Origin: an uncultured virus (IMG/VR IMGVR_UViG_3300028734_000015) | Lineage: Duplodnaviria > Heunggongvirae > Uroviricota > Caudoviricetes | Strand: one strand, 5' to 3' | DNA length: 64,000 bases | Virus record (IMG/VR): IMGVR_UViG_3300028734_000015 | Part shown: positions 251-61,000 of the stretch, piece after piece | Numbering within the stretch: the first letter of the stretch is position 1 | How the letters are laid out: each line of letters opens with the position of its first letter | Translations under genes and position numbers: made by a program | The notes under the pieces: generated by a model | The model's input: only the letters and a program-made list of their open reading frames with translations | Told to the model about the DNA's origin: nothing | Database searches by the model: none

Positions 251-622
251 TTATTCTTCTATTGGCATTCCTGGTTTGTTTAGCTCTTGTTCTATAGTGG
301 CTACTGGTTTGATATTTATTAATATTAATCTACATTCTTTTGGGTATATATACCTGGTTAATCGTATTACTTCTGATGTTTTTAGATCTGAATAAATACT
401 TACTACCTGTGCGTATGTTTCGTCATAGAATATATAATTTGCCGATAACTTTTCTGTGACTCGGGTTGATAATTCATTTTTTGGAATTGATGTCCCTGCT
501 AAAAACTCTGCTTTTTCTATTCGTTTACCTTCTTTAATCCCATTCACTTTTGTTGTCTGTGTTACTACCGAAAACAAAAGTATGCAGATTATCACTACAA
601 TTGCTAATAAAAGATTTTTCAT
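251..622 (-). CDS. Hypothetical protein with N-terminal membrane/signal segment
   Basis: 123-aa ORF, hydrophobic MKNLLLAIVVIICILLFSVV. Confidence 0.75.
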   Translation of the reverse strand: MKNLLLAIVVIICILLFSVVTQTTKVNGIKEGKRIEKAEFLAGTSIPKNELSTRVTEKLSANYIFYDETYAQVVSIYSDLKTSEVIRLTRYIYPKECRLILINIKPVATIEQELNKPGMPIEE

Positions 623-655
623 TTAAATTGATTTTAAATTGTTAATACTAATTTG

Positions 656-727
656 TGGCAGCCTAGGGATTCGAACCCGTTCTTTCCGCTGTCTATCACA
701 GTGCTCTCATACTATGTAGATACTGCC
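656..727 (-). tRNA. Degenerate tRNA-like element (pseudo-tRNA, isotype unassignable)
   Basis: Minus strand GGCAGT...GGG-TTCGAAT-CCC-TAG-GCTGCC-A: 6-bp acceptor stem and canonical T-loop, but D and anticodon arms do not fit consensus. Confidence 0.5.
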
Positions 728-735
728 TTGTGCCA

Positions 736-1041
736 TTATCTTTTTAAGATTTCATTCCAATATTGGTATCCATCTTTTGTTTTCGCCCAATCAAACGCTC
801 TTGCTATGAAAGTTCTCCAATGTTTTAGTTTATTTAAATACATTGCTGAATCCATTGTTCTCCAAGTGGTAATATCCACACATTCTGTTGCGTGAATGCA
901 AACTGGTCCAGGAGCGCTTTCAGTACCTACTCTTAATAGGTATGCTCTTAGTTCTTTAATGAATTTTGCTTTAATCCTTAATCTTTTGAGTTTTAATTCA
1001 AAATCTGGTTTAAATTGGATGTTAATTTGTTGTTTTGACAT
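736..1041 (-). CDS. Hypothetical protein
   Basis: 101-aa ORF with A-rich leader; ends AFDWAKTKDGYQYW. Confidence 0.75.
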   Translation of the reverse strand: MSKQQINIQFKPDFELKLKRLRIKAKFIKELRAYLLRVGTESAPGPVCIHATECVDITTWRTMDSAMYLNKLKHWRTFIARAFDWAKTKDGYQYWNEILKR

Positions 1042-2794
1042 ACTAAATTGATTTTAGATTGTTGATTAATATTTTAAAACACCCATACATTAGTTGTAAA
1101 GCGGAACCATGGTTCTATTATTCGCCTTATGTATGGGTGTTAATGTGTTTAGTTACTTTCTTTTCCGTATTCGTAAGTTTTATTATGCAGTATTTACAGG
1201 CCTGCGCGTGTCCTGCCACATATGTGACGGCGTTGTACTTCGATTTCACTAATATTGGTAAGTAGCAAATAATAGGTAGGAACTTTATACCCCACTATTG
1301 AGCCTCCACGGCGCCTATACGGTTATAATACGCTTTTTATTTGTTACTTATTGTTCCCAGTGACTCAATCAAGAGTCGGTTAATGACCGATTATCGGCGA
1401 ACATTTACTTTTACTGGTTTGTTGGACCGACTGTCTAAGATTAATCTGCCTTTCGAGCTCCTCTTAACGGTAGCATTGCATTGCTGTTTGCATTTCACTT
1501 TTTTTTGTTTTCATCTGTAATACTACAGATATATCCGTTCTTCTGCAGTCACGGACTATTCCTAGTTAGTACTTTCCGGGAGTTTTGGCTAGGGATAGGA
1601 TTTTAGATTGGTAGTTAATACCTTTCTAGCACCATTTCTTTTCAGCATTTCACTGAGCTTTAGGCAAGCGTTGTTTTTCTAGTTTCATCAGCTTCTACTA
1701 GTAGGCTGTACATATTTGTGGTTCTTAACCAATCATTAGCGTCTATCCCTCGGATTACGTAACTAAGTTTTTGTTAAGTATTGGATTCGTCAACTTAACT
1801 TCTGGACTCATGCCAAGTTTCTCCAGTTTGAGTTCTTAACTAATCATCAACTTCTGAATGTCTGCAGTTTAGTTGCAACCTCTTAGCCGATTTAATACGG
1901 CACAACTAATACAATACGAATACCGTTATTAGCCACCAGTTTAACATTTACCCAATTTAATGTCGGTACGTTGTTGTCGTTTTGTTTGGTCTAAAGCCAT
2001 CAATCAAACTGGTCCATCTACTGTAAATAGTCATAAATCATTGGACTATAATGCTGGACTTTGCTCACGATTTTCACTATGAGCGATCGTGAATTGTTAA
2101 TCTTTTCTAATCAACTGGTTATATATAATTCCCATCCGCTCCGCCTAATTCAAATCAGGGTGTAACCTTATCAGTGTTATCCTAATTCGACACTGGTTCA
2201 GCTGCGTCATACGTCCATAGAAATTATAAAATAACGAGTAATTAACTTGAGAATTATGAAATTGCTGCCTTAGTTAACTCAACAGCACTTTTTCACTTAC
2301 TTATCGCATCACTGCGTCCCTATGAAGTATAGTTCGGGATTCGTCTTTATTTATAGCCCATCCACGTTTTATATCTATTTTGTACAGTCAAGCGCATTAC
2401 TGCTTTGTCAATATTATATATAGTATAGTCTACCCTTTGGAAGTAGTTTCACGACGTGTTAGCCAGAAATAGTAATGCAAGACGATATTCTTGCTGTCGA
2501 GTGGTCATCCCACGTTATTATTACTATTTCTTTTGATCCATCCATGTTTTATTATTCAAGTACTCGCGACTCGTATTATGATATTCTTGAATTTATACAA
2601 ATCCTAGTGTTATCATAGATTGCAATCGATATACAGCTTACTGCGTGTGTAAATAATAGTATGCCCTTTGGAAGCATTCCCTGACATGTTAACCTGGGAG
2701 TCCCACCCGTTTCAGTTAGATTCGCCATCCTAGGCTACTGGTAACTGCTGCTGTTTTTGAAACTAGCTTAAAATTCTATTTTTGTTATATTGAA
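1042..2794 (-). ncRNA. Candidate large structured non-coding RNA region (one long or several RNAs)
   Basis: No credible ORF in a gene-dense phage; many hairpins (1078-1142, 1513-1530, 1557-1598, 2465-2531) and duplicated motifs; G-U pairs in one motif favour the minus strand. Confidence 0.55.
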
Positions 2795-3136
2795 TTATTT
2801 GTTTCTTTCTTTCACCATTTCATCGTATTCATTAGCAATATCCTGCTTTGATAATGATGAGTGAGTTTCTGAAAATTCTCTTATTTTTTGAGTTCTTTCG
2901 TTCTCAATTTGATTTTTGTTCTTAATAACCGGTTCATTGGTTTTAAGTGGTGATTCCAATTCATTAGCTGAAATAGGTCTTCTATCTGGGTAGTGATGTA
3001 CGTTAGCTATGAATTTGCCGTCGTCCTTGTCTTCTATCCAAATGTCTAATTTTCTGGGTAATTGTTTGTGCATTATGCACCATCCTACTATTTCATAGAA
3101 TAATAATATTAATGAATGTGATTTAAACTGTTTCAT
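2795..3136 (-). CDS. Hypothetical protein
   Basis: 113-aa ORF, leader ATTATCAAAAATG. Confidence 0.75.
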   Translation of the reverse strand: MKQFKSHSLILLFYEIVGWCIMHKQLPRKLDIWIEDKDDGKFIANVHHYPDRRPISANELESPLKTNEPVIKNKNQIENERTQKIREFSETHSSLSKQDIANEYDEMVKERNK

Positions 3137-4502: not shown

Positions 4503-4786
4503 TTTTAATAGGATTATACTAGTTAATATAGATAATGCCTTAAATGAGCTTAAAATGACTCAAAGAGCCATATAATCATCTAAGTTACTGAAAATATGAA
4601 TTGTTAAATACCCTTTTGGGGGTAGAAGGGAGACTGTTCCCCTCATTCACACTACAATTTGCGGTATAAAATGCAAAAAGTAGTCATAGTTTGCAGCAAA
4701 AATAAGTAAGAACAGCATAATAGTTCTAACGTTACCCATACAATCAAGTTAGGTGTGTCGAATTCTACTATACTGTTCTATTTTAC

Positions 4787-5332
4787 TTAATTTATTACTT
4801 TACCTTCAGCATCCAATGGCTTCCCTGAGGCTGGATCAAATCCAAATCCTGTAGGAGGTGGCAATAATACTGGTTCAATGGCCTTTGTACCAACTTCGGT
4901 AGCAGTAGTTTTTGCAATCCACGCTCCAAATGATTCAACAGTCTTTGCCGCTTTAGTTTTTGGATTTTCAGCAGGTACAAACTCTGTAGTCTTACCGGGT
5001 ACATAGTCAGGATTCTTTGACATACGTACATAGACATCCAGAGAGTCATGAATAGTATCTCTGAAATTGCCAGCATCGTCTTTCAATTTGAAGTCAGGCA
5101 ATTCAACCGTAATCTTGGCAATCTGCATGTTTGGAACAGTGTTAGTGTCAGCCCATTCTTGCATTCTAGCCTTACGAGCATCAGATTCAGGGAAGAAATT
5201 GATATTTACATCCTTCAAATCCCATTCGTCTTCAATATTCATAAAGATACCTTTGAAATAAGTTTCGCCTGCATGACGTTTTGCTGTTGAAGGTATAATT
5301 GCAGCAATAAAAGATAAACATTTGTACAACAT
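4787..5332 (-). CDS. Hypothetical early-region protein
   Basis: 181-aa ORF directly downstream of two copies of the repeated motif. Confidence 0.8.
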   Translation of the reverse strand: MLYKCLSFIAAIIPSTAKRHAGETYFKGIFMNIEDEWDLKDVNINFFPESDARKARMQEWADTNTVPNMQIAKITVELPDFKLKDDAGNFRDTIHDSLDVYVRMSKNPDYVPGKTTEFVPAENPKTKAAKTVESFGAWIAKTTATEVGTKAIEPVLLPPPTGFGFDPASGKPLDAEGKVIN

Positions 5333-5394: not shown

Positions 5395-6619
5395 CTAAAG
5401 GCGAATTGATCGGGATATTGCTAAAAAACATATCAATACTAACTAAAGAGTCTTGATAGCGATATTAATAGCAGGTCAGCAGTTATCTGACAGTACTATA
5501 ATATATTTAGCACATACGAAGGTTTAGCATGCCACCTACAAGCTTGATTATTAATATTTTACCTTATTTATTAAAACAAGTTCAATATCAGTACTTACAT
5601 GACAAGTATCATCTTCATTCTTTATGACGATGTTATCTGCCATTCTTTCTGCATCGTATTTGTCTCTTGCTTGGACATATACGACTGTGTCAATGTTCTC
5701 TTGTTCAATTTTAAGGCTTATTTTAAAGACTTTTTCATTGGCCTTTACAGTAAGATCAGTAGAATCTTTTACAATAGCTACAGGTTTTACTTTCTCATTG
5801 TGAGCAGGAGTACAAGATCCAAATACAAAACATAATGTCACAACAATAGCGACAATAATAACACGAATAATAGAAGTACGTAATTTCATTTTGATAATGA
5901 TTATAGTTAATAATAGTTAATTAATAGTAATAATCAGTAATACAATGCATGTCGTCTGTCTTACATGTATTACTGATTTAAAAAGTAGTACACAATGCGG
6001 ACATAGGTTTAGCTGGATCATCCAGGCACTACTATAGTGGCATACATTGTGCATTACTTAAGAAAAAGGAGCACTTATTGTACGTTAGTGCTGAACGTTG
6101 GCTGTATGACCCCAGTCTTGGGAAATGTATGTTGGACCTACGATCCCAACGAAACGAGAATGTGAGTAAACTGCCACATACAATCAGTAAGGATAGAATT
6201 AATTGCCATTGCTACAATGCGCCTATCCAACTACACCTAAAGGAAGCCTGACAACGACCTTAATAGGGTTTTAATGCGATCTAACGCACTCTATATATTG
6301 TATAGTACATTAGTGTAACTAACATACATGATCTATTAGAGAGAGTTGCAGTAGTGTTCCAACATCAACTGTGTCTAAACAATTGTCTTAGTCTTAGCTC
6401 GACAATGCGTACTAACTACTGCATAATGGTTGCATTGAGAGCGTATGACACACCATTATATGTCACATGCTATATTACATTGACCTGTAATATGAGAGAG
6501 TAAACAGCAATAACATTGCCTAATCAGCCTAAAGGAGTCTTGACAGTGACCTTAAGGTAGAATTAATCAAGGTTAAACCATTCCAATTCTACCTAAAGGA
6601 GTCATGATTGGGAAATTAC
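5395..6619 (-). promoter_or_regulatory. Five dispersed copies of a ~27-bp motif (plus-strand consensus CTAAAGGAGTCTTGAYAGNGANNTTAA); candidate early promoters
   Basis: Copies at 5395-5420, 5443-5468, 6237-6263, 6529-6555, 6593-6619, all intergenic and upstream of the minus-strand gene block. Confidence 0.55.
5551..5889 (-). CDS. Putative lipoprotein
   Basis: Signal-like N-terminus ending FVFGSC; 112 aa. Confidence 0.7.
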   Translation of the reverse strand: MKLRTSIIRVIIVAIVVTLCFVFGSCTPAHNEKVKPVAIVKDSTDLTVKANEKVFKISLKIEQENIDTVVYVQARDKYDAERMADNIVIKNEDDTCHVSTDIELVLINKVKY

Positions 6620-6743
6620 GATTCAACATTGCTGACGGGGGACTTGGACCATCAGATCCGACCGGGGGAGACATATATAGAGAGTTTCGCGCACTCGCAC
6701 ATGCTATCAATTATTTTTTTTCAGAAAATTTTTTACAACAGTG

Positions 6744-6772
6744 ACAACAAAATAGAATATACTTCGTTTATA
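6744..6772 (+). promoter_or_regulatory. Bipartite promoter-like motif ACAAC-N16-CGTTTATA
   Basis: Same motif recurs at 7176 and 8743. Confidence 0.55.
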
Positions 6773-6777
6773 CACAC

Positions 6778-7150
6778 GATACCAGTCTCCAAAGACTGAT
6801 CACCCTAAGGTAATCAATAAAGGGTTAGACATCGGATTATAATAGATTAACCGAGGACGTAGATAAAGGCAGTAGGTGAGTACTCAAATGAGATAAAGGT
6901 CAAGCGCCAAACTCTATGCATTTATAGTCAATAAAAGGCCGTTAGTTAGTCTATTAGTTTTCTCCGGTAGTGTCAAAATGATTAAAGTACAAGTTAAATG
7001 CCGTTGCTATTTATAGCTAAGAAGGAGAGATTGCGATAGACGGGTTAAGTGATACCGAAAGGGAACGTACAGATTTAATAAGGAAATAATCAATAAACCA
7101 TACCGAATATGGGCCGGTCTCAAGGGGTAAACTGTGTTTAAGAGTGAACA
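6778..7150 (+). ncRNA. Candidate structured ncRNA
   Basis: No plus-strand ORF; follows promoter motif; stems CAGTCT/AGACTG (6783-6798), ACCCT/AGGGT, and 6949-6965 pairing with 7024-7041. Confidence 0.45.
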
Positions 7151-7175
7151 AAGATACATAATACTTAATAATGGT

Positions 7176-7205
7176 ACAACAAAGGACGGGTTAAATACGT
7201 TTATA
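7176..7205 (+). promoter_or_regulatory. Promoter-like motif ACAAC-N17-CGTTTATA
   Basis: Motif copy ending 5 nt before the ATG at 7211. Confidence 0.55.
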
Positions 7206-7210
7206 TAAGT

Positions 7211-7378
7211 ATGAATTGGGCACATATAAAGAGAATATTGAGTAGCAAAAGGGTTCTAGACGAATATGGTTCAGTCAATGACTATACTATTAATGATAAG
7301 ATAGAATCCCGGGGAACTCAATTCAATCTAAGTACCAAAGATAAGAATAGACTTAAGAAATTATGGAAATCAAGATAA
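7211..7378 (+). CDS. Small hypothetical protein (55 aa), possibly leaderless
   Basis: MNWAHIKRILSSKRVLDEYGSVNDYTINDKIESRGTQFNLSTKDKNRLKKLWKSR; not in ORF track. Confidence 0.6.
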   Translation: MNWAHIKRILSSKRVLDEYGSVNDYTINDKIESRGTQFNLSTKDKNRLKKLWKSR

Positions 7379-7386
7379 ATTAATAT

Positions 7387-7575
7387 ATGATTATAATGAC
7401 ACTAGATCTTTGGGATGAATCAATCGTCTTCGCTATAGCATTATTTATAGGATATGCATTACATCCGGTAATCAACAGTATAATAGTTTATCTAGTAAGT
7501 ACTATACTTAATGGAATGAATAAGGTAAACAAGAATATACGAAAGAATATACGAAAGAATATAAAAGATGTATAA
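7387..7575 (+). CDS. Small membrane protein
   Basis: 62 aa, hydrophobic core; overlaps next start. Confidence 0.65.
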   Translation: MIIMTLDLWDESIVFAIALFIGYALHPVINSIIVYLVSTILNGMNKVNKNIRKNIRKNIKDV

Positions 7576-14158: not shown

Positions 14159-17100
14159 ATGATTAATTTCAATAAGAAGGTTTTAAATTCAAATAAATTC
14201 AGAAACCCCGCGATCCACTTTCAGGACCATGGGGTTTACTGTTTCGCACCATATGGTACTACTGAATACTTAACATATTGGGATAAAGAAGCAGAGAGAT
14301 GTGTAGAGGGATATACTGCTCCAGATGGAGATTGGATAAGCGGATATAACTATTTTTACTTAAATTATTGTCCAATACTACGATTAGTAGAGTTTACATA
14401 TAAAGATAGATTTGGAAATGTAAAAACGCGCAGAGAGAAATCAAGAGAGTTTCCTGACTTTTACGATTATGATTATTATTACTTTACTGCTGTTCAAGAG
14501 GCAGAGGAAGATGGCAGCCATATGTGTGTTTTAAAGTCGCGTGGTAAAGGATATTCATTTAAGGGCGGGTCTATGCTAGATAGAAACTATTATCTAATAC
14601 CCGATTCTAAAGGATATGCTATTGCTGCAGAAACAGAATATTTAGTAAGAGATGGACTACTAACTAAGGCATGGGACTATATGGACTTCATAGATGAACA
14701 TACTGCATGGTCTAAGAAACGTCAAGCGATTAATACTAAAATGCATAGAAAAGCTTCTATTATTACTACTGACGAAATGGGTAATAAGATTGAAGTTGGT
14801 TATAAGTCTGAAATAATTGGAGTATCATTAAAGAATGACCCCAATAAAGCTCGTGGTAAACGTGGTAAACTTATACTATGGGAAGAGGCTGGATCATTTA
14901 AAGATATCTTACAAGCTTGGCAGATAGCTAGACCATCTGTAGAAGAAGATGGAAAGGCATTTGGTTTAATGATAGCGTTTGGTACTGGTGGTGATGAAGG
15001 ATCTAGATTTGATGGGCTAAAAGAAATGTTCTACAATCCATCTGGATATAACATTAAGGCATTCCCAAATATATGGGATGAAGGTGCAGATGGTAATACA
15101 TGTGCTTTCTTTGTTCCGGTATATGCTAATATGTCTGTACTTGATGCAAATAGCAAAAGGATGTTCATGGATAAGAATGGCAATAGCCTAAAGACTAAAG
15201 CTATTGATTATGCTATGTCTGAGCGTCAAAAAGTAATAGATGGATCGTCTGATTCTAGAGCAATTGATAGGTATATTGCAGAGAACCCTATAACCCCTCA
15301 GGAAGCTGTTTTAGAGCTCACAGGGAATATATTTCCAAAGAAAGAGTTAATGATACAGTTAGCAGCAATACGTACTAACAGGAAGCTACAATCACATAAA
15401 CAAGTAGGCGATTTAAATTACATTAATGGTGAATTAAACTGGACTATCAAACAGAAAGGTGATATAACTAAATATCCACTTGGTAGGGATGATAAACATG
15501 AGGGGAGCATAGTCATATGGGAGCATCCAAGCAAGGACACTTCAAATCAATTATACATAGCAGGATGTTTAACTCCTGGAGAAAAAGTTTTAACAAATCA
15601 TGGGCTTAAAGATGTTGAAAAAATAGACCATAATGATTTGCTTATAAATGAAAAAGGAGAGGAAGTTGAAATTAAGGTATTTCAAAAAAGATACAAAGAA
15701 AACTGCGATACATATAGAGTAACTCCTCATGGTTCATATAGAGGGACTAATTTTACTGGAGAGCACCCATTGCTAATAGAGGATCAATTTATAAATGCCA
15801 AAGATGTTTCAGTAGGAGATAGATTAAAAATACCAAATAGATATTGCGAATCAAATGAAAAATACATAACAACTATATATAAATATTTTGGAGCGGAGTT
15901 TAATTCTGAAAATCCTTTATTTTGGTGGTTTCTTGGCTGTTGGTTAGGAGATGGTTTTAATAATAAAAACAAAAACTCTCATGACATATACGTTGCATTT
16001 GGAAAAGATCAAACTAAGTCTGCATTGCAATTCGATAATATAATTAAGAAAATATTTGACAGAAAGACCACTCATTGTAAATGGAATGGTGGTGAAACAA
16101 GAAGATTCACTAGTAAGATTTTATATGGGTTTTTAGAAAATGAATTTGGAAGATATTCATATGGAAAAAGAATTCCAGAATGGGTTAAATTTGCAAGAAA
16201 CGATTTACGTAAGTATTTTATTGCTGGATATTTAGATTCAGATGGAAGCGCATTTTATGATAGAGGAAAACTTAGAGTTAACTTCACTAGTATAAATTTA
16301 GAAATGCTAGAGTCATTACAGGATATGTTATATGCTACTGGAATTTTTAATACAATAACAAGACACAGTAAAAAGTGTATATCTATATTTAATGGTAAGG
16401 AATGCATAAGTAAAGAATCGTATAGGCTGTCTATTGGAAGAAAATATATAAAAAGGATAATACCAACTGGATTTGAACACTTTCTTCAGAGTGAAAAAAT
16501 GAGACGAATAATTGAAGAGAAGATTCAAGATGTCGTCAAGACTGGAGATAAAGCAGTAATCTCCTCATGCGGAAAATATATATATCTAAAGATAGCGAAG
16601 ATTGAAAAATCTAAATATACTGGAACTGTATATAATTTCGAATGCGACACACATACATATATGTGTAGAAACATTACGTCACATAATTGTGACCCGTTAA
16701 CGATATGGCGGTGCAGATTAATTTCTGTAAGAATTGAGCAAAATCGGTGAACGTCTCTAGTAGAAAACACCTAGGTAAATAATTAGATTTCGAAAGGCTA
16801 ATTATCACCGTAACGCATAGCAGATGAATAAATATAATTCTGCCAAGAGTGCTCGACAAGAATCAAACTTGATAATATATGCTGAGCTATATGGCGACAT
16901 ATAGAAGTAAAGATAAAAAGCTTTACGATAACAAAACTGATGATCACGATAAGGCTGGTACTAATTCCTTAGGAGCTACATTCATTTATAAACGAATACA
17001 AGACTTTGAATCATACTATGATATAATAGTGGCAGAGTATACTGGGAGGCCAGATACTGCAGAAGATTACTACGAGAATGTACGTAAATTATTACTGTAT

Positions 17101-49066: not shown

Positions 49067-52000
49067 ATGAATATAACTAAAGAAGATATTAGAAAAGCCC
49101 TAGGTAGTGGTAGTTTGAAATGGTCTGATATTGCAAGTATGCCATCCAGAGACAATAAATCTTATGGAGAACAGGATGCTGACAAAAGAAGTGAAATAGA
49201 AAGACAAAAGACCGAAACCGCAGTAGCCCCTTCAAAAGTTGCTGTTAGTGCTCCAGCAAAACCTACTCAGTCTATAGTAAATACTCCAGACAAATTTGAT
49301 CCAGTAGCAAACTCTACAAGTTCTGAGATAAAGGGTCCTCTTCCACAAGAATCACAATCTGCTGTATCAAAAAGTACTGATCTAATACAGAATCAGTATC
49401 CGGCTGATAGATATAATACTCGTAACTTAGCTGGTCAGTCTTTTAAACAATTTGCATCTAGTTTGTATGACAATCAATTATTCAAAATAAATGATAACAT
49501 TCAAAACAATATAAAACCATTTGTTGATTTATCAAATACATTAAAAGATAATGCAAATAATCCTGATTTATATGAGTTATTAAATACTTATCAGAATAAA
49601 AGAACTCAATCCGTACTTTTTGATCCAGTGAAAACCGATGTTAACGATCCAACTTCATTAAGACAACTTGATAATTGGGAAGTACCACAGCATCTAACTG
49701 AATTAAATACTAAAGTTGGTCCACAATTAGAAAAATGGTCTAATATTGATGAGAACTCAGATAAAGGATTACCAAAATTGTCAGAGGTAATGGCAGGCAA
49801 GAATATTAATAATACTTCTGCTGGAAATAATTGGTATAAAACATCTATAGATAATCTAAATAAAGAATATTCAGACAGTACAGATAACGTAGCTATTACT
49901 CAGCAGTCAAAAAATCTAACCATTGCTAATGATGAGGATAAGCCAGATGACATATCTACTGTAAATGAAAATACTCCTCCTATAACAGCGGCCAACATTA
50001 GTGTTGATAAGTTGTCTCATGACTCTTTAAATTCTTCTGGAGTTAAACCAGTTAATGATTACTTAATTAAAAACAAGTCTTCAGTTGCTGCCTCTATTGC
50101 TAATGCATCTACTCCTGATGCTATTAGTGGTTCGGGTAATCAAAATCAAAAACCAAGTCCTTATGATATAGTTAGTAATTCTAATATATCTATGCCATTC
50201 AATTCGAATAAAATATATAATTCCAATATTGGAGATGATACTTTATTTGGATCTATAAGAAAATCATCAGACGTTGTATCTAATTATATAAATAAAGGTG
50301 CTAGTGACCAATTAAAAGTTGGTTATGGAGTTCAAAAACCAGAAGGAGTAAAATTTGGTTCTATGTGGTTGGCTCCAGAAGCCAAATTAGGAGCCGAAGG
50401 GAAGACTGGAAAGTTAGAGAAGCAAGACTATCCAATTTCTGATTGGGTCAGTCAGAACGTCTCTGAGGGATTAGGACAGGCATTAAGAGGTATTGCTATA
50501 GGCACTGAGACAATACCAGATAAATTTGTTGCAACTATATCTGATATATCCAGGATTAGAATGACATCCGCTGCCGCAAATGCTAGAGTAGGATTATTAA
50601 CCGATCCAGAAGGAAATGCAATTCCAACGTTCCTGGGAGATAAAGAGAATAAGACCCTATCTGATATATATTCAGAAGGTGCTAAACAGAGCAAGGCTAG
50701 TACAGTAGAGCATCTTACTAATGTTTCTAAAGCAGAAAGTCAACTTCCTGATACATGGCAAGCTAAAGCAGGAGGAATTGTTCCCCTAGCCGCAGTTACG
50801 ATTGGAGGTATATTATCTGGCCAACCAGAAGTAGTTGGGGCTGGAGTAACTGCGTCTTTCGTTGGTACTGGATATGCAGATGCATTAAATCTTGCAAACA
50901 ATTATGAAAAAGAGACAGGGAAACCAATTAGCGATGATACGAAGAGCGCATTAGGAATAGGTACTGCCTTAATATATTCATTGCCTCTTGGAAAATTATC
51001 AAGTGGGTTAGGTGGTATAATAAAGAAGACTCCACTAAAAGCAGTTCAAGAGTCTGTATTTAATTTTATTTCAAAAAACCCAGAAGTAGTTTCTGAGGCT
51101 GGAAAAGGAGTATTTAAAACATTCGCAGATCAAATGCCTGGTGCGATAAAGTCATTTGCAACAACTGCTGGGAAAGGTGCTCTTCATAGTGTTGCTACAA
51201 TGGAAGGGATTGGAGTTGCTCAAAATTTATTAAATGAGGCAATTATAGGCAAACATACAGATGCTGAAGGATGGATGGATACATTTAGATCTGGTTTAGA
51301 AACTGGATTAATGTTCTCTCTTGCAACAGTACCATTTGCTCATGCATCATATGCCGCTAGATCCGCAATGTTTAAAAGAGCTACTGATTCCAATGGAGAC
51401 GTATCTTTATCTGTTACGAATGATGGTAGGGCTGTTTACGTTCATCCAAAAACTGGAGAAGACAAAACATTCGGTACTACTGTAGATGGGAAAAGAGTAG
51501 AATTAAATGATGATGAAATCAAGAGAACGTTTACAATGACTTCTCAACATTTAAAAGACGAATTAGATTCATATAAGAAAACAAAAACTGTTAATCCAGA
51601 TATAGAAAAAAATGCTTTAGAAAATAGAGTAAGGACTGCTCTTAGCGGCCTTTCTGTTGATGGTATGATTCCTATTGTACGATCCCCTGAAAAAGGGATG
51701 CAGATAGTAACTGGAGAATCAGCCAATGGAAGTGCTTTGGGTGTAAACCTTAGTGGAGAGAAGGACTATATATCAAAAGAAGCCATTCCCGAAAATGCAA
51801 AATTTAATGACGTATATAATGAGTTAATGGCTCAGTACGATAAAAATAAAACTACTACAGAGCAAAATAAACCTACAAGTGACACTGCAGTACCTCCAAC
51901 TCAAATAAGTCCATCAGAGACGCTTACATCGTCTTTTTCGAGTACTATAGAGAGCGAACCATCTGCTCCCATTGCTGTTTCTGGAATAAGTAATGATTCT

Positions 52001-55000
52001 AGATATCAACCAGACGCATTACATAATAATGCCATGATTCATTTGTCTGATGGCATGTCAAGTGATATGACAAATAGTGTAATAAACGCTGGAGTACTTC
52101 GTGATATGCAAATGCACGATAGGATTAAAAAAACTAGCTCATATATAGATGCCTCTAATAATGGAAAGGAAAATGCTACTCTTAAATACCTAGAAAAACT
52201 AGCAAAAAATCCTCCAGTAGGTATAGATCCAGAAGATATTAATAATGAATTAAAGTTAGCAAAAAATACATTATCCGTATATAAGGACAAGAGTGTGATG
52301 GGTTATGCAAATAGGGCCGGCGGAGTTGGTTCTGAGAATCATAAACTTCTTACTTCTCTTATTATTGACCATGATAATTCTGCTAAACAATTTGACGATG
52401 TAAAAAATGAATTACTAACATCTTATAATAAGCAGAAAAATGATTATGCTCCTATATCTGAAATGGCAGATCGTTATGCTGACTATGTAAAACCAGATGT
52501 TGTCCCACTTGTATCCCCAGTAGCTCTATTTGATGCATTATCTAATTTTGAATCACTTAAGGATATAAACATACAGAATGATTCTAAAAATGAACATGCA
52601 GTTAGAAAGAACAAAATAATAAATTACGAATTATCTAAGAAGAAACAAGAGGCCGCTATTCTTGCTCATAATGAGTTAGCAAACTATGGTATAATAGACA
52701 GATCAGAAAAAGATAATGTTTCATTTGATGAATTGTCCAAGCAAATTGATTCTTTGAATCTGCCTAGTATGGATAAAAATGCTATTCAAACATTAGCACT
52801 TTCTCACATATCTGATATATCTGGCAAATACGAAAGTACAATGTCCAAGTTGCTTACCAATAAGAAAGTTGGATATACTGGATCAAAAACGATGGATTCA
52901 AAACATCATGATATATTCGTTGATAAACTTTTAGATTCGTATAGGGATAGTAGAAAAAAGGAAATAGACTCTGAAAATACAAAGCAAATAGTAGATGACA
53001 TTAAATTAGAAGGGAATGTCGTTCCCGAGCCAACTGGAGAATACCATAGTAGTTCTGATATAATAACTCCATCTATTGATAATATAAAACCACAAGATAC
53101 TTTCACCCAAGAAGTTCCTCCAGTGAGTCCTTATGAAGAGTCTCAGATTCCTAAACCTGTTACTGAAGTTACTCCTCCAGTTAATACTGAAAGTCCTACT
53201 GGGCCAGAAAAAGTTACTCCTCCTATCCAGGCTGATACTATTGCAAGTGAGGTTAAGGATGAAAAAGGATCTGTTGTAAGCACTGATATTAGTAGTGATG
53301 ATGAATCTGTAGTGGATGAAGTTTCAGATATAGACAGACTTATAAACCAATTAAATCAGGATTCTATTATTGTCGATCAAAAACCAGATCTACCAGATAC
53401 TATAAATGAGACTTATGATAATAAAGAAGTTTTAAATGCGGTAGAAAGTTCTGTAGAGTTTAAAAGTATACTTGACAATGAAGACACAGAGGCCTTCAAT
53501 CAGTTAGTTGAAGAATTACCTGGATTGGTCTCAAGTAATTCTATTAAACATGATAGAATAAGCCACACATTATTCGCTAATGTAGAGATTCCTTCAATAA
53601 GAGAGTTTCTAATGGATCCTGTTGCATTTAAATCTGCAGAAGTTAGGATAATAGTAAATAAGCACAATTCCGGAATAGGAGACACGTATTCATTTAAATC
53701 CGGTGGTTTATCTATTACTGGTAATGACTTCGTTGGTCCAAATAATTATGATCCGAATGATCAACTTACTTGGGATAATGCCTATATTAAAGTAGAAATA
53801 AAATACAAAAAAGGGAAAGAAGTTAGAACAATTGCCTTTAACATGAAGAACCCAGGGGAAAGGGAGCAAGTTGTTGAAAAAAATGGTATGTTAAAGTACT
53901 CTTCTGATGAAATTCAATCACTTAGAGATTTTAGGAATTCTATAATTACTGAGCAATTAAAGGTTATAGCAGATAATTCATTACAATTAAGGATGCTTGG
54001 CGGTTTAGATAGAGGTATATCTAAATTAGCATTAAATAGGACTTCTGAAGGAAAGGCTATTCAGAGAGGATTGCATGAAGTTGTTGGACTACTAGATGAG
54101 CCAGATGTAAATAAGTTAGGGCTTACCAATTTAACATTAGCTTATGGACGTGGTGAAAAAGGTAGTAATCTGGTTGTTTCATTATTTGAAACTATCGGAA
54201 CTAGTGTAAATGAAAATGCTGGATCTATATTTATTACCAAAACAGAGCCATTTGATGCAAATTCTGAAAGAAAAATAAAAGTAAACAAAAAGAAAGTAAA
54301 CACTGATCCCGAAATGGCTGATTTAGTATATAAATTAGCAATAGACATGTTTGGCAGCAACGCTAGACAAATAACACTATCTCCATCTGGTAAAGTAATA
54401 GAAACAAATACTACGTCTCCTTATGGTTTAACTCCAGCATCGCTATTATATAGGATGGTTGGATTTGGAGATGTGACTAAAATGAGTAGTGATTCTACTA
54501 AATCCTTTTTAGAAGATAAACAATTTTATGTTGATAATGGAATATTACACTATGGTACAGAAAAGATTGCGGTAAACACTATTGGCGCAAAACAGAAACT
54601 AGAGATATTGGAGTTTATAAATAATAATTTAACCTGGACTATAAATAAAGATGATTTATGGAACAGGGAAAATAATACGGATAATCTAGTATCAGACATA
54701 TTCCCAGGTATTAAAGCATTTTTCGATAGAAATCCTAATGAAAATTCTGTTGATTTTACAAAACAATTCTCTATAAATAGGAGTGATGTTGGAATAACAT
54801 GGACTGCATGGTTGATTAAGAATAAAAAATTAACTTCGGATATTGCAGATGGAGTATTTGAACCTCCATATTTGTTTATGACTAATGTAGTTGCAGTATC
54901 TAATGGCGCTGAAAAAATAACACCAGTCAATAATGGTGCATATAATACTTCTGTTACTCTGGTAGACAAACCAATAATGGATCCCACTATATTAGGGAAG

Positions 55001-58000
55001 GAACCTTCTGTTGTGGTAGATAATACTAAATCTGCAAAACAATTAGAGATAGATGCTGCAAAAATTAATTATGAAAATAGATTAAAGTCTAGTCATGGTG
55101 GTCAAGGCCCTAAGTTGCTATATGAAAATGCACTTAGAGAAATAGATCTAAAATACAGCAACCCCGAGAAACCAGTGTTGCCAAATGATATAGTTTTACC
55201 AAAAATAATTACTACTCCTAGCGCTAAGTCGCTAGACGAATTTGATGATTTTGGTGCAACGAGAATGATTGATGACTCTAAACAAGTAGTTGATTTTATA
55301 GACACTGAAAAATCAATTAAGTTCATTAAAAGTAAACTCGGTGATGATTTTGACGTAAAAGTACTTGAAGATGTTATTTCTTTACATAATGGAGAATCTG
55401 CAATGGGATTATCATCTGATGGTAAAATAGACCTGTACAAACTAGCAGAAAAGGGTACTGACTTCCATGAGACGTATCACGTAGCTTCATTGTTATTAAT
55501 ACCAAGATCTAGAAGAATGGCTATTTATGATAGTGTAAGAACTTCTAATGAGTCTATGAAGTATGCCACTGATAAGGAAATAGAAGAGTATTTAGCAGAA
55601 AAATTTAGAGAGAGAATCCTATCAAATAATGTAGATTCTGAAAATGGTACTACTGTAAATATAGCATTTAGAAAGATTTATAATGCATTTAATGCGTTAC
55701 GTAATTTCAAAGATAGAGATATTGAAAGATTATACAAAGATATAGAACGTGGAGTATTAAAAGGCGTCAAACCTAGTTACTATAATAAAGAGGCATTTAC
55801 ATCTAAATATGAAGATAACGCTGGAGCTCCACGTAGATTTAAAGAAGCAGGGCTTCAGTCTATTAAGACGGTAGAAGCCAAGGATAAACTAGTTAACAGT
55901 TTAACTTACTATTTATTTGAAATAAGCGGAATACAAACTATTGATGATATAAATAAGCTAGACTATCAAGGATTAAAATCCAGTCTATTAGCTTCTGCAG
56001 AAAAGATAAAAGATAATCCTGATGAAATTGCAAGATATTCTTTATATAAAGAAGCATACGATAGATTTGACGATTACTTTTTACCCGCCATAAAGGCAGA
56101 AGTAAAAAATACTGGCATAACTGAATTTACTCCAAAAGACGATAGTGTTGAAGATGGTATAGTTGGGAGAGAAGTTCAAGAACACGATAAAGCTTCTTAT
56201 GAGATATCAAAAAGAGATAATATAAGGGCCGAAGTGAAGTTCTTTATTAGGACTATCCCTGAGACTATAATTAAAGATAATAGTGCAGTGGTCGTTAGGG
56301 ACCCAATATCTAAATTCCCATCATTTGTTGAATTTGAATTAGCATGGAATACCATGATTTATGAACTCCATAAAGAAACTACTCCAGATTCAATGAAAAA
56401 GAAAATTGAAACTCTTGCTCATGAAAAGAAAAATCCATTCTTTATAATGTTAGAGAATAGACTTTCTAAAATGGATGATAACTTTATTACTAAGTTCTGG
56501 AATACAATGTATAGTCATAGGCATGATTACGTTAATACTGTATATAATTCAAATAGCGCTAAGCCTGATAGCGAGTATAATAGATCAATAAGGAATATAT
56601 CAAGTAACATAGATAGGGCTACTAGAGTACTGCCTATCTTATGGGGTCAGAATATGATGTCTGGTGGATATCTTTATACTGTTACGGATGATGGTCTTGT
56701 ATTTAACAAAAGCAATGCTGAGTCTATAATATCTAGATACAAGGAATTATCAAAGTCAATCACAAAGATGTCGTCAACAGAAGATGCTAATAAAGCACTT
56801 GACTCATTTATAGATTTACTTAATGCTGCGTCTATAGATGTAGACATGGATACAATGGAGTGGATCATTGGTAATAATTTCCCTGGATTTACAAGATCTA
56901 GAGCAGTTTCTATATTAATGAACGACTATAAAGATACTGCCAAAATATTTACTACTATTTTGCCTCAAATTATAAAAGACAATGGAGGTAAAAACAGAGT
57001 AAAAATAAACGAATTAACTCCTAAGGTTCTACTTGGTGGAGAAAAATCTATAAATAATTACGCTAAAGTATATGCACAAACACATCCAAATCCACAAGAA
57101 GTTATGGTCCCTGGGGCAGATGGATCTAATCTGTATCAAATATCTTCTAGAAATTTCGTTACTGATGTTATTGATAAAATATCTAATAATCCAGAATATC
57201 TAAAAAATATGTTAGATGTGCCTATTAATCAGGGGTCTATACTATTAAATCAGATTAAAAATGGAACTTCGAAAGGAATTTCATTCGGTACATTTGTTAA
57301 AATATATGAAGAAGGTGTTGCCGACCAAGGTAGGGATTATTTTGACATAAGTCCAATGGAGGATTATGTCATAAAGATGTCTAACTTATTAGATAGCAAT
57401 ATAACACTTCCGGCGATGGCAGATAAAAAGACATATGGCTTTATATTTGGTATTAAAATGCCTGATATGGTATCTTCAGATAAGGGGTCTCAAAAGATGT
57501 CTTGGAATGGAAATACCATATCATATCCTAGTGAAGTAATAGATATATTTAATGGGTATTATTTATCTGAGTTTAATTCTATAAAGCAAGCTTGGGCAAA
57601 ATATAAAGAGGAAAATGGAAATAAAAAAAATCTAATAAATAATTATCATTATGATAATAGTGGTAAATGGGCTGCTGGACATGGAAACGGACTAAGATTT
57701 AGATATTTTGATAGTTTGTATATAAATTCTAAAGCGGTTGGTGATGAGTATAATGGATTTGTGGACCTAAATGGCTACATAGATAAAGTAATAGTTACTA
57801 GAGGTCCGATCATTGGTAATGATGCAGCTATGGATGAAGCGATACAGAGACTCGATAAGAAGTTCTTTTCTGAATCTTATGAGAATAAGTCTAAAATGAT
57901 TAGTTCTACTATTACAGCTGCAACCAAATTTGAGATGGACTATGCAGAAGAAATAGGACTTATATCTAGGACTACCTCTGAATATACCGCTACAATGGCA

Positions 58001-61000
58001 CGAGAAGGAGTTAATGTTGGTGATATAGTTAAAAGTACTATGTACGAGAATAAAGCGCTTGACGCCGCATTATATAATAGTAATGTTGCTGACTATATAA
58101 AGGCTGGCGTTGCTCCAAAAGATGCTAATATGGTTGCTATAACAAACATATTAGCAAACACTGCTATAAACTCTATAATATCAGAATTTGAAACAGATAA
58201 ATTAATATCAAAGGACTTAGCCTATTATAAGGGTTCAGATGATAAAACAAAAAGACTTTCTAGTGTTTTGTCTACTGGCACCGCTTTGAGAAATAGTTTT
58301 CCAGAAGGGCATCCATTAAATGGTATTACTTCATTCAATGTCGCTGAAATATCTGATAGCATAATAAAAAGTACTGAAATAGATGAAATTAAGAATAAGT
58401 CATATGCCGCTCAGATAAATAAATTATTAATCCAGTCTGGTAAATCTAGAATCCCAAATTTAAGCGAACTATATTCTAATCCAGGAATGAAATCAGAATT
58501 AGATGCAGTTAGGTCTTCAAACAAAGCCATATTTGATATAGGAGAAAAAATAATAGATAACCAATCTAAAGCTTATGAAAAAGTAAATGTAACTGATGCT
58601 ACAGTATATATATCACCATATATGTACCGATCTATTATGACTAGGCTTGGAGAAGATTACTTTACTCCTAAAGTTGAAGAAGCATTTAAGTTATTAGAGT
58701 CTGACGACTTGTCTTGGATGGATGATGCGGATACATATGAAAAGGTATCTCAATTGGCCTTACACCCATTAAAGATGGTTTATTTTGGCGATTCGTTTGA
58801 GAGCGGTTTAAATGTTCCTAAACTGGATAAGATGGCTATGTTCCTTTTGCCTAAGTTTATGGCCACTGGTGATCTAAGGAATCTATACGAAAGAATGAAT
58901 AATCCTAAAATAGGTCAGCAGAAGATCGATATGGCTCCATTTAGTAGCGCTGTTAAGACTTATAATGACAATCCCATTGCAATATATACTGGAGAAGATG
59001 GGTCTGTTATGTCGACTCTAGATGATATTAAGGTGGCACAGCAATCATTTGAATTCTTGAGACATCAATTGCCAACTACCCCCCACGAAGGAGCAACCAT
59101 GGCCGTGGCTACTCAAGTTCAAAAAGCCGCTATGGGAAATATAATTTCTGATGTAGTATACCCAAATATAACTATAAATGGAAAGAATGATGTAACTGGA
59201 ACTCAATTAAAACAAGAATGGGTTTCTGCTTTAAATGAATTATCAGACAGAGGGAAAGCTGATATAGAGAAGGAGTTTGGGTTAAAATTTGGTGAAGATG
59301 GGAATTATGAATTTAATACAAAGAAAATGTATGACTTCCTGGCTATTGAATCTGAGAATTCTGGTATGCCAAGTGATGTTACAGAAATGTTAGCATCATT
59401 TGATCCTGCTAATCCAAAAGACATGCCATTACAGGCATTAGTAGATGGAGCCTTTGTAGAGTCTAAAATACTTTCACATATACTTAAAAGTACTGTAGAT
59501 GTGAATACTCCAGGAGGCATGTTTATTCAAATGACTCCATTTGGATTAAAATCATTTGATAACACTAACACCCAATACAAAATAAATGGTGGTAATAAAC
59601 TAAAGTTTTATAATCCTGATGGTAGTATGGATGTAGTGATATCTATTACTATGTTTAAAGATATACTTCCATCTGATCTAAATACCCATAATGCAAAAAT
59701 ACAATGGTTGCTGGATAATAATATTATAGGAGAGAATTCTGCCACTTGTGCTATTGGCTATCGTATTCCAACTCAGGGCTTATCATCTATAATTTCAGCA
59801 AAGTTTGTTGATTGTTTACCTGAATTTATGGGAGATACAATAATAATGCCTGACGAATTTACTGCCCTTACTGGTAGTGACTTTGACGTTGATAAATTGT
59901 ATATATCAAGATATAATTTTGTTAAGTCCGGTGATAAGTTTATCAAGGCCCAAATGGACGACTCAAAAGAAAATAAATTTCAAACAAACTCTGCAAAAGC
60001 AATACAAAATAGATTTATTGATGTAATGTTAGCTGTAGTGTCTAATCCAGACAGTATAAATGAGACTAGAATACCTCTAGATGCCGTTACAGATCCAGTT
60101 AAATCTGCATTAAAAGAAATAGACAAGTGCAATAAAGATGATATGATTAATATCCCATTTGCAAAATCTAGACTATCTTATGAAAGTAGGAAGAAGATGG
60201 AGTATGCTAGTGGCAAAGGTGGTATACCTACATTTGCATTGGCTGGAGTACATCATGTATTAACTCAGATTGCAGGACTTAAATTCAAAGACAATAATGT
60301 AGTAAGTAAATTTGGCTTAGAAGATATTGCTAAGATTAATGGTAGTGATGGATTAAGAATTCTTGATTGGTTGTCTGCGATGGTAAATGCGCATGTAGAT
60401 GTTGCAAAAGATCCATATATCATTAGAATGGGAGTTAATCAAGGGACATATAAGATGACCGCATTATTACTTAGGGCTGGTTACGGAGAAAAGACATTCT
60501 TCTTTTTGAGTCAACCATCACTTAAAGATATATATAAAGTTTTGGCTAGAAAGGGCAGCGAATATCTTACTGGAAATAGAAATTCTGATAAGTCTTCTAT
60601 AGATAAAGAGGTTAATAACATGATCGCTTTTTATAAAAAGAAGGCAAAAGAAACTGCTAAAAGTTCATTTGATCAAAAGAAATTAGAAAATCTATACGAA
60701 GAAAATGATAAAGGATTTGTAAAAATACATAATGAAAATGCATTTAACAAGAACACCCTTATAAATAATATGGCAAGAACTAATGTTACTGGCTTCGATC
60801 ATTATTATGGACAATTAGTAGTACTTGAAACATACAAAGAATTAAGTAAATATGCTAGTGCATTGTCTGAATTAGTAAAATATTCTCAAGTCGATACAAA
60901 AAAGGCTGGTAATGCCTTCTCAGCACAAAGACTATTTGCCGATAAGGTAAATGAGATAATGATGGATCCAAATAGTTTGTTCGCAAATGTTGGAGATTTC

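Follow-up and report, generated by a model that had tools for sequence, protein, structure and literature searches.

A conserved gene-free locus of proposed RNA modules in environmental crAss-like phages

We describe a gene-free island of 1.75 kb (1753 nt) in the genome of a crAss-like phage, located at positions 1042-2794 (minus strand) of the window, which is the whole 64-kb stretch of DNA that was analysed. The island is non-coding, lies in the same place in six phage lineages, is conserved above its neighbouring genes, and contains stems that keep their pairing through compensatory changes on one strand only. Our preferred reading, held with moderate confidence, is that of a phage non-coding RNA locus on the minus strand, a string of short self-closing RNA domains that would act as modules in trans. 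The proposed modules are the A-unit (present twice here), X, the B-unit, the C hairpin (also present twice), the E hairpin, the D-unit and H-F. We read the locus as modular because the copy number or presence of A-unit, C, E and X varies by lineage and no convincing long-range helix was found.

The island is bordered by a 113-aa gene (2795-3136) and a 101-aa gene (736-1041), both on the minus strand, the same strand on which the modules fold. Congruently with the sequence-only reading, which had called the region free of open reading frames, no credible ORF was found under any of three genetic codes. The longest table 11 ORFs overlapping 1042-2794 encode 68 aa on the plus strand and 50 aa on the minus strand, and those found in the island under table 4 encode at most 66 aa. 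Reading TAG as glutamine yields a single 145-aa frame, located on the strand opposite to the flanking genes and containing four read-through stops. The gaps of the six lineages contain, on the gene strand, stop-free runs of at most 55, 53, 65, 59, 70 and 64 codons. All six frames show peptide similarity between lineages, and the matching frame switches from one lineage to another, indicating that nucleotides, and not a reading frame, are conserved; no frame of a protein-coding gene, standard or recoded, is kept across the six lineages. The remainder of the window carries long ORFs throughout under table 11. The G+C content of the island is 0.36-0.42, compared with mostly 0.28-0.34 in the flanking windows.

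Next, we compared the window's own lineage (W) with W2, G2, G3, G4 and G5, all of them environmental crAss-like phages; these six lineages form a sample of one narrow clade without a cultured host, in which W, W2 and G2 are closely related. A gene-free gap of 1.2-2.1 kb occupies the same place in all six, measuring 1753 nt in W, 1561 nt in W2, about 1215-1390 nt in G2, 1450 nt in G3, 1299 nt in G4 and at least 2094 nt in G5. In W, G3, G4 and G5 a homologue of the 113-aa gene sits directly upstream of the gap, and in W2 and G2 the gap is one gene more distant. Downstream of it, W, W2 and G2 carry a gene of the 101-aa family; G3, G4 and G5 carry other genes.

The nucleotide sequence of the island is kept more faithfully than that of its neighbours, a property expected of structured RNA in general. 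Between W and G2 the RNA core is identical at 815 of 903 positions (90%), compared with 192/300 (64%), 210/303 (69%) and 204/285 (72%) for three flanking genes, and this high identity could partly stem from a recent exchange of the segment between phages. Between W and W2 the values are 845/1003 (84%) for the RNA versus 218/342 (64%) and 212/306 (69%) for the genes. Moreover, blocks are retained even where the flanking proteins are only 31-41% identical. Their order (A, X, B, C, E, D, H-F) is constant in all lineages carrying them, and in the six-way alignment the 5' and 3' ends of the island are lineage-specific. The A-unit is present in two copies in each of W and W2 and in one copy in each of G2, G3, G4 and G5; the C hairpin is found in one to three copies per lineage, and the X module is present in W, W2, G3 and G5 and missing in G2 and G4.

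On the minus strand, the map begins with a small putative 5' hairpin (2694-2710; GGG, a 7-nt loop and CCC) just upstream of the first A-unit. On reading the sequences, W, W2, G4 and G5 share a hairpin of this kind, and G2 and G3 have a different 5' module. The A-unit is a three-way junction composed of P0, P1, a P2 with an invariant loop, and a variable P3. Copy 1 (2523-2701), delimited with alignment A3 and RNAalifold, scores 80.7 bits with covariance model R1 and is followed by GGAUGG; copy 2 (2343-2471), also in alignment A3, scores 91.6 bits, and its P1 reads CACGU/ACGUG where that of copy 1 reads CAUGU/ACAUG. Just upstream of copy 2 lies a long hairpin (2465-2531, inverted repeat I4) with perfect 12-bp outer arms (2465-2476 and 2520-2531, 100% complementary), and the six-way alignment shows no such hairpin at that place in other lineages. 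The X module (2305-2339), outlined by RNAalifold in four lineages, consists of two adjacent hairpins, the second with a GUGA tetraloop.

The B-unit (2124-2255; alignments A1 and A4) joins a conserved 5' flank (2238-2255) to a core (2124-2228) formed by a 12-bp closing helix, a conserved asymmetric internal loop and variable inner hairpins, and is the most conserved block of the island, with 92% identity to G2 over 320 nt. The C hairpin, UGAUU followed by a 5-bp stem with an AAG loop, occurs at 1825-1851 (copy a) and 1714-1740 (copy b), both in alignment A7. The E hairpin (1642-1656; UCAGU/GAAAU/GCUGA; helix 1 of alignment A6) is missing in G3, and the D-unit (1534-1598; helices 2 and 3 of the same alignment) is a pair of twin hairpins found in 6/6 lineages, the first with a conserved base and a variable tip and the second with a conserved GAC...GAAGA loop. 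A short hairpin, ATCTGTA/TACAGAT (1513-1530), was identified by reading and is shared in the six-way alignment with G2 only. The H-F module (1351-1473), defined by conserved blocks of the six-way alignment, ends on its 3' side with the F hairpin (1356-1381), which exposes a UUGAUU loop and precedes CUGGGAACAA.

Further to the 3' side, a segment of ~210 nt (1142-1350) is the most G+C-rich of the island (0.42 over positions 1201-1500); it has no counterpart in the other five lineages in the six-way alignment and is thus without comparative support. The island map closes with a long hairpin followed by UUUU (1066-1141, inverted repeat I1) with a perfect 13-bp outer stem. The palindrome at 1078-1141 has 32-nt arms with 75% complementarity, perfect over the outer 13 nt, and the local folding z on the minus strand is -2.69. 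Our consensus terminator scan left this hairpin unlisted, presumably because its loop and inner stem exceed the limits of the scan; the UUUU after the stem was read from the sequence. All of the modules and hairpins above are on the minus strand. The stems and internal duplications listed in the sequence-only reading are all present, and duplications were seen at 1721/1832 and 2425/2656. The duplicated GTTCTTAACYAATCAT turned out to be the repeated C hairpin and CCATCCAYGTTTT the 3' strand of the A-unit closing helix.

To search for compensatory changes we followed the comparison with relatives that had been suggested for this region, and it returned six syntenic lineages and several modules with such changes, as judged by RNAalifold and by shuffles. 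In the A-unit (8 copies), 96.7% of the cells of 19 pairs are paired and 9/19 pairs have changes on both sides; none of 500 shuffles reached four of the five measures and 19/500 reached the fifth (further pair types), the relatedness of the six lineages inflating the significance of all shuffle results given here, and the structures being derived from the same alignments in which the pairs were later counted. When the partners were slid, 37-53% of the A-unit cells paired. For the C hairpin, 10 of the 12 identified copies gave 94% pairing and double changes in 3/5 pairs, matched by at most 3/500 shuffles on four of five measures and reached by 500/500 on further pair types. The D/E alignment is 94.8% paired with double changes in 3/17 pairs, and 14/500 shuffles were as high; its E hairpin has five pairs, 100% paired and one with a double change. 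Compensatory changes above controls, a general mark of structured RNA, were thus found for the A-unit, the C hairpin and D/E.

For the remaining modules, five of the eight pairs of X carry double changes (counts from four sequences, given without a shuffle control). In the B-unit 96.3% of cells pair, compared with 34-51% when the partners are slid, and its covariation is not significant, since 375/500 shuffles reach its number of double-change pairs. Read from the sequences, the F stem consists of GACUC/GAGUC in W, of CCC/GGG in G5 and of CCA/UGG in G4, and RNAalifold keeps three pairs in the H-F module, two of them with a double change. Regarding the strand, G-U or U-G pairs fill 30 of the 150 A-unit cells, and three of the U-G positions are invariant or nearly so; U-G pairs are also found in the B-unit and D/E. 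On the plus strand these would be A-C mismatches, so that the pairing fits the minus strand only.

Folding energy does not set the island apart from its surroundings. For 150-nt windows on the minus strand, the mean z was -0.63 inside the island (n=22) and -0.64 outside it (n=53; Mann-Whitney p 0.92). Folds of 900 nt gave z values of -3.18 and -2.62 for the island (20 shuffles), compared with -3.00, -1.92, -1.41 and -1.24 for four coding controls (14 shuffles). Hence, an excess of folding energy, as generally expected of a structured RNA, was found in neither the local nor the 900-nt test against controls. The near-continuous stems described in the sequence-only reading do not amount to unusually dense folding, as the local z equals that of the coding flanks and the 900-nt z falls within the range of the coding controls. 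What stands of its proposal of a large phage non-coding RNA or RNA array is the structured non-coding locus, supported by six-lineage synteny, conservation above the genes and strand-specific compensatory changes; what does not is its original basis, a stem density that lies at background. Elsewhere in the window, the intergenic stretch 4503-4790 folds far more strongly than the island (z -6.4).

We then searched for known RNA families. A scan of the window with the 4227 models of Rfam release 15 at the gathering score gave zero matches. GOLLD and ROOL are both among these models, and the failure of the sequence-only reading to match the region to either was confirmed. Relaxing the search to E values up to 10 over positions 500-3000 returned three matches far below their cut-offs (19 against 68, 18.9 against 40 and 17.7 against 50 bits), and in the five relatives, with E up to 1, only three tRNAs were recovered. 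A tRNA array was not detected: ARAGORN found 0 genes and Rfam no tRNA match in the window. A tRNA-Ile lies inside the G5 gap, the sole tRNA among the gaps of the relatives, and a tRNA-like element lies near the island in W. A self-splicing intron or small self-cleaving ribozyme was discarded, as Rfam gave no group I, group II or ribozyme match, and on reading the A-unit junction strands, the hammerhead core was not present in them.

We also looked for the island in sequence collections. In the GenBank phage collection, neither blastn of the island nor tblastn of two flanking proteins found a match, and the nearest virus record (G001) does not have the island. Locus searches with single flanking proteins recovered only 99.9%-identical copies, which are of no use for covariation. 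Among viral contigs, 9/14 first matches of a motif scan were unrelated, and a B-unit pattern picked out only 5 contigs, from four known lineages; among metagenome contigs, 8/15 motif matches were unrelated. Two more viral scans (10 and 37 stretches) added solely a partial copy of the G5 lineage. While true A-unit copies score 75-99 bits with the A-unit model, the 14 pattern matches among 185,579 species genomes scored 16-25 bits or did not match the model, and no bacterial copy was found. In the window and three virus records (two of them complete genomes), the same model placed copies only inside the island. As for earlier reports, our search of open full-text literature on crAss-like or Crassvirales non-coding or structured RNA found none of such an RNA. 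In the open main text of PMC9226505, Crassvirales are mentioned only in connection with reverse transcriptase, and in that of PMC7886860 the terms non-coding, noncoding, ncRNA and intergenic are absent.

The neighbouring 113-aa protein has no Pfam or PHROG family; its AlphaFold model (mean pLDDT 72) has a confident N-terminal beta-alpha-beta-beta domain, and Foldseek gave no fold match for the protein (best E-value 0.1, uninformative). The other neighbouring proteins in the relatives gave only OmpA, HNH and a weak DUF2157 match. Promoter-like sites (33 versus 34.2 expected) and terminator-like sites (5 versus 4.0) are at chance, and there is no obvious terminator downstream of the 113-aa gene, before the island. 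A leader-like motif shared with the upstream regions of two genes occurs at 1600-1618 (0 mismatches), just upstream of the D-unit, and at 1051-1069 (2 mismatches); its frequency in the window is that of chance (7 matches versus 5.99 expected). TGATTG is found 1.78 times per kb in the six gaps, compared with 0.30 per kb in the window. We considered whether the exposed UUGAUU loops pair with AUCAA in mRNA leaders and set this aside as weak, with ATCAA lying within 25 nt of 6/47 ORF starts compared with 5% of background 25-mers. The sequence-only reading had also suggested early expression and possibly an anti-defence decoy or scaffold; the island sequence gave no pointer to a defence target.

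We next weighed other explanations for the locus. It could be a single large ornate RNA (~1.2-1.7 kb) that adopts a global tertiary fold in the manner of GOLLD or ROOL; its modules would then be domains, and it may self-assemble, as is reported for other large phage RNAs, or hold a complex together. Such an RNA would account for the constant block order in all lineages carrying the blocks and for an uninterrupted gene-free stretch whose only strong hairpin-plus-U-run is at the 3' end. The GUGA loop of X, of the GNRA type, and the conserved internal loops would fit as well, both being typical of large folded RNAs, as would the tRNA gene inside the G5 island, given that GOLLD loci are reported beside tRNAs or containing them. 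The 900-nt folds of the island (z -3.18 and -2.62) point the same way, but they fall inside the coding-control range of -3.00 to -1.24. No long-range helix with convincing covariation was found: a crude scan, which is non-discriminating, gave 32 on the true strand versus 28 on the reverse complement, and with an alignment that is poor between blocks a global fold could have escaped it. The differences in module copy number and presence, the lineage-specific 5' and 3' ends, and the lack of any match in Rfam to GOLLD, ROOL or another large RNA all speak against a single fold, which we regard as unlikely though not negligible. More doubtful still is that the island only holds cis-acting elements of the leftward operon, that is, antitermination, processing or stability signals in untranslated mRNA, like nut/boxB or put, with no role in trans. 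The island does share its strand and direction with the flanking genes, no obvious terminator follows the 113-aa gene, and the small hairpin with an invariant loop, repeated one to three times per lineage, resembles a cis signal recognised by a protein. Yet 1.2-2.1 kb far exceeds the needs of known cis signals, and the downstream gene varies between lineages, which implies that the elements do not go with any single regulated gene. The leader-like motif found immediately before the D-unit would suit a cis role, although it is no more frequent than chance.

Stems that remain paired through two-sided changes would not be required of binding sites in duplex DNA, and the strand-specific pairing (G-U in 30/150 A-unit cells) argues in the same direction; we consequently give very little credit to a DNA-level element with inverted repeats at work in the DNA itself, whether an origin of replication, a site for packaging or clustered protein-binding sites. 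The large gene-free region, its many inverted repeats, its slightly raised G+C and the enrichment of some motifs such as TGATTG would be in line with one, but it is at ~5.9-7.5 kb, away from the island, that the cumulative GC skew reaches its minimum and the genes change strand. It is equally improbable that the region has no function and consists of decayed genes, coding hidden under an unusual code, or neutral spacer. The ~210 nt unique to this lineage (1142-1350), the ordinary folding energy and the 145-aa plus-strand frame under TAG=Q could be explained in that manner; against this, the core is 84-90% identical when the flanking genes are 64-72% identical, blocks persist where the flanking proteins have fallen to 31-41% identity, the A-unit and the C hairpin covary, no frame is conserved and the rest of the window reads well in table 11.

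Several known systems resemble the island in part. Like GOLLD, it occupies a large gene-free stretch of a phage genome as a structured-RNA locus with many hairpins, conserved and variable parts, and tRNA-type genes nearby (the tRNA-Ile inside the G5 island and the tRNA-like element near the W island); unlike GOLLD, it has no Rfam match, carries other motifs, belongs to a crAss-like phage group and has no detected global fold. ROOL, a large non-coding RNA of unknown function often found in phages and prophages, is also a long, conserved, multi-hairpin phage RNA, whereas the island lacks an Rfam match, is longer and is visibly modular with a variable module copy number. The stable small RNAs of the phage T4 tRNA region offer another likeness, as several separately folding RNAs lie along one unit, mixed with tRNA or tRNA-like genes, and would need processing; however, the window has no canonical tRNA and the island modules show no similarity to tRNA. 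Finally, the C hairpin and the D-unit look similar to the small invariant-loop hairpins of lambdoid boxB/nut and of HK022 put RNA, which are repeated in the early transcript and recognised by a protein or by RNA polymerase. In contrast to those signals, the island has no sequence or model similarity to them, has far more elements, and far more RNA, than antitermination would call for, and no antiterminator protein or downstream terminator was identified for it.

Returning to the reading that we favour, a locus of modules acting in trans, the island would most likely form the tail of the leftward operon's transcript, which would likely end at the hairpin and U-run at 1066-1141. The modules, possibly cut apart after transcription, would then work individually in trans as RNA elements bound by proteins and could serve as a scaffold or a decoy for a host or phage RNA-binding factor. 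More tentatively, we propose an undescribed family of long modular phage RNAs in this environmental crAss-like clade, in which a transcript of >1 kb would join new motifs into a multivalent platform by which a host RNA-binding machine would be captured or misdirected as the phage takes over. Strung together on this platform would be the A-unit junction, whose loop is invariant, along with the B-unit and the repeats of the UGAUU-stem-AAG hairpin.

Few known phages are as abundant as the crAss-like ones, which form the most abundant order of gut phages, and almost none of the small genes in their leftward block has been annotated. To our knowledge, large conserved non-coding phage RNAs are few and none has a known job. 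The island provides RNA parts with defined coordinates: it is better preserved than the proteins around it, carries new covarying motifs and matches no Rfam family. Its repeated modules should make the search for a binding partner easier than a single giant fold would. If the modular platform proves true, it would be a functional counterpart of GOLLD and ROOL whose repeated modules can be dissected.

By its sequence, the source of the window is a crAss-like phage; the ORF at 22150-23628 matches the Crassvirus major capsid family (profile search, E = 5.6e-213) and a 4459-aa ORF lies at 49067-62446. A LAGLIDADG domain (E = 1.3e-10) and a weak match to HINT in the 863-aa ORF at 14159-16750 (plus strand) suggest an intein within a large phage gene. 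Genes run on the minus strand from 1 to ~5900 and on the plus strand from 7568 on. A second gene-poor gap, ~1.7 kb at 5890-7567 with ORFs of just 42-72 aa, coincides with this switch and with the cumulative GC skew minimum. The gap is therefore a candidate for a replication origin or for a region of divergent promoters; the covariance model of the A-unit, a module of the RNA island, has no match there.

The island itself (1042-2794) sits amid small minus-strand genes, with a 113-aa gene upstream (2795-3136, minus) and a 101-aa gene downstream (736-1041, minus). Pfam and PHROG searches returned no significant family match for either neighbour and none at all from Pfam; the 101-aa gene had only two PHROG matches, both weak and to families of unknown function. 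The sequence-only reading had described the island as ORF-free, and we likewise found no credible gene in it under table 11, table 4 or with TAG read as Q. The longest ORFs reach 68 aa (plus) and 50 aa (minus) under table 11 and 66 aa under table 4, while TAG=Q opens a single 145-aa frame on the opposite strand to the neighbouring genes, with four read-through stops. Searches of the window with the Rfam models gave zero matches at gathering score and, at E up to 10, just three in 500-3000, all at chance level, which places the region in no Rfam family. ARAGORN called zero tRNAs and zero tmRNAs in the whole 64 kb, and nothing in the GenBank phage collection matched the region or two flanking proteins at the DNA or protein level.

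Searches for the locus with the flanking proteins recovered only copies 99.9% identical to the window, indicating that independent assemblies reproduce its sequence. When viral contigs were scanned for a motif duplicated within the island, 14 matches came up, diverged relatives among them and the other 9 unrelated; metagenome contigs, scanned for the most conserved block, yielded 15 stretches, 7 being family members and 8 chance, and the sole addition from two further viral scans with other motifs was a partial copy of the lineage named G5. This makes six lineages in total: that of the window (W) and five related environmental ones (W2, G2, G3, G4 and G5). The genomes of G3 (93.9 kb) and G4 (97.0 kb) are complete and carry terminal repeats. 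Among 185,579 species genomes there were 14 pattern matches, none above 25 bits with the A-unit model; true copies score 75-99 bits.

In each of the six lineages the gene strand shows a gap free of genes, measuring 1753, 1561, about 1215-1390, 1450, 1299 and at least 2094 nt in W, W2, G2, G3, G4 and G5, respectively. In W, G3, G4 and G5 the gap is immediately preceded by the gene for the 113-aa protein or its homologue, which lies one gene further upstream in W2 and G2. Alignment of the six gaps outlined at least ten colinear conserved blocks. Peptide similarity between lineages consists of short matches in all six frames, the frame shifting from lineage to lineage, and no conserved reading frame was found among the gaps. 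The RNA core is conserved better than the surrounding genes: W and G2 share 815/903 nucleotides (90%) in the core versus 192/300, 210/303 and 204/285 (64%, 69% and 72%) in three flanking genes, and W and W2 share 845/1003 (84%) versus 64% and 69%. The RNA blocks are still kept in G3-G5, where the identity of flanking proteins to their W, W2 and G2 counterparts is just 31-41%.

The modules were all analysed on the gene strand (window minus strand), with structures derived from the very alignments used for the pair counts; since the sample comprises six lineages, including three close ones, significance is overstated by the shuffle statistics below. The A-unit (2523-2701 and 2343-2471), defined by RNAalifold and pair counts and present in eight copies over the six lineages, is a three-way junction formed by the outer helix P0, by P1, by P2, whose loop region is invariant, and by a variable-length P3; GGAUGG comes after it. 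RNAalifold gave 19 pairs, 9 of them with changes on both sides. In the MAFFT alignment 96.7% of 150 cells are paired, a figure that drops to 37-53% when partners are slid by 1-3 columns. No shuffle (0/500) reached the observed value on four of five measures; 19/500 did on the fifth (further pair types). Five copies have CAUGU/ACAUG as P1, and the second copies of W and W2 have CACGU/ACGUG; the P1 of G4 is unrelated in sequence and still forms 2/5 pairs, of which one is altered on both sides.

The C hairpin (1825-1851 and 1714-1740), found in 1-3 copies per lineage, is built of UGAUU followed by a stem of 5 bp with an AAG loop. Aligning 10 of the 12 identified copies (two with enlarged loops were excluded), we found 94% of cells paired and double changes in 3/5 pairs; at most 3/500 shuffles reached the observed values on four of five measures, and 500/500 did for further pair types. 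The X module (2305-2339), two hairpins carried by four lineages, has double changes in 5/8 pairs as a raw count over those four. The E hairpin (1642-1656) and the D-unit (1534-1598), analysed together, are 94.8% paired with double changes in 3/17 pairs (14/500 shuffles equal or higher). The B-unit (2124-2255), the most conserved block, has a 12-bp closing helix and 96.3% of cells paired versus 34-51% with partners slid; its covariation was not above shuffles (count reached by 375/500) because the block varies too little. The last element of the H-F module (1351-1473) is the F hairpin, whose loop is UUGAUU; by reading, the F stem differs in sequence among lineages and retains pairing. Comparison of homologues, proposed with the sequence-only reading, thus brought out double changes in the A-unit, C, X and D/E, the B-unit not being significant. 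Two short sequences recur, both of which may be recognition motifs: TGATTG, at 1.78 per kb in the six gaps versus 0.30 per kb in the window, lies in the C hairpin 5' flanks and the F hairpin loop, and GGATGG occurs four times in the W gap, its complement being absent from all six gaps.

The pairs also indicate the strand. G-U or U-G fills 30/150 A-unit cells, with three U-G positions invariant or nearly so, and U-G pairs also occur in the B-unit and D/E, along with changes from A-U to G-U. Read on the plus strand, such pairs would become A-C mismatches, so the RNA is assigned to the minus strand, co-directional with the flanking genes.

Every stem and duplication listed in the earlier reading is present where it was placed, but the unusual structural density it had seen is not borne out. 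Local folding of the minus strand (150-nt windows, 40 dinucleotide shuffles each) gave a mean z of -0.63 inside the region (22 windows) and -0.64 outside (53 windows; Mann-Whitney p 0.92). Two 900-nt folds of the region scored -3.18 and -2.62, compared with -3.00, -1.92, -1.41 and -1.24 for four coding controls, so the region is ordinary by folding energy alone. A more strongly structured stretch is the intergenic one at 4503-4790 (minus), after the gene at 4787-5332 (MFE -79.9 kcal/mol, z -6.4, 0/200 shuffles as good); it is probably a terminator cluster, containing two G+C-rich hairpins as well as a long hairpin that leads into a U-run.

A tRNA-like element of ~72 nt lies at 657-730 (minus), with counterparts in related phages at L034 3926-4008, L025 about 7177-7282 and, on the reverse strand, L041. 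Its parts are an acceptor-type stem, a single hairpin whose AUGAGAGC loop is conserved, and a T-arm bearing a UUCGAAU loop. W, W2, G2 and G3 all keep the element, and compensatory changes appear in both the acceptor stem and the hairpin; neither ARAGORN nor the Rfam tRNA model calls it. The element stands one gene downstream of the island in W and inside it in G3, which has a canonical tRNA-His at W's site, upstream of the homologous gene. Some 0.5 kb past the downstream end of the G4 island, ARAGORN also called a 91-nt tRNA-Glu (L026 7867-7957, plus). It did not come up with the Rfam tRNA model at E up to 1 and may carry an insertion.

The main rival to a modular organization is a single globally folded RNA. 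A crude scan for long-range helices pairing in all lineages gave no convincing case and did not discriminate between strands (32 helices on the true strand versus 28 on the reverse complement). Every tested module is closed by its own helix, copy number varies between lineages, and modules come and go whole: the E hairpin is absent in G3, and X in G2 and G4. Both ends of the island, 5' and 3', are lineage-specific, and the G5 gap contains a canonical tRNA-Ile. We therefore favour, from these comparisons, a string of self-contained modules over one global fold.

Transcription of such a string could come by read-through from the leftward operon. This would fit the long hairpin followed by UUUU (1066-1141) at the 3' end of the W island, directly before the next gene's leader, and the lack of any comparable signal seen after the upstream gene; a promoter and terminator scan performed at chance level.

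The nearest RNAs by kind are GOLLD and ROOL, which are large and phage-associated, together with the stable RNAs encoded in T4's tRNA region and boxB-type repeated recognition hairpins; the island matches no Rfam model. Within the literature searchable in full text, we found no account of an RNA of this sort from crAss-like phages. The proposal of a structured ncRNA is thus supported in part, by the covarying minus-strand modules and by conservation exceeding that of the genes, but not by folding energy. Most likely the region represents a new phage ncRNA locus of narrow distribution, made of several covarying minus-strand modules.
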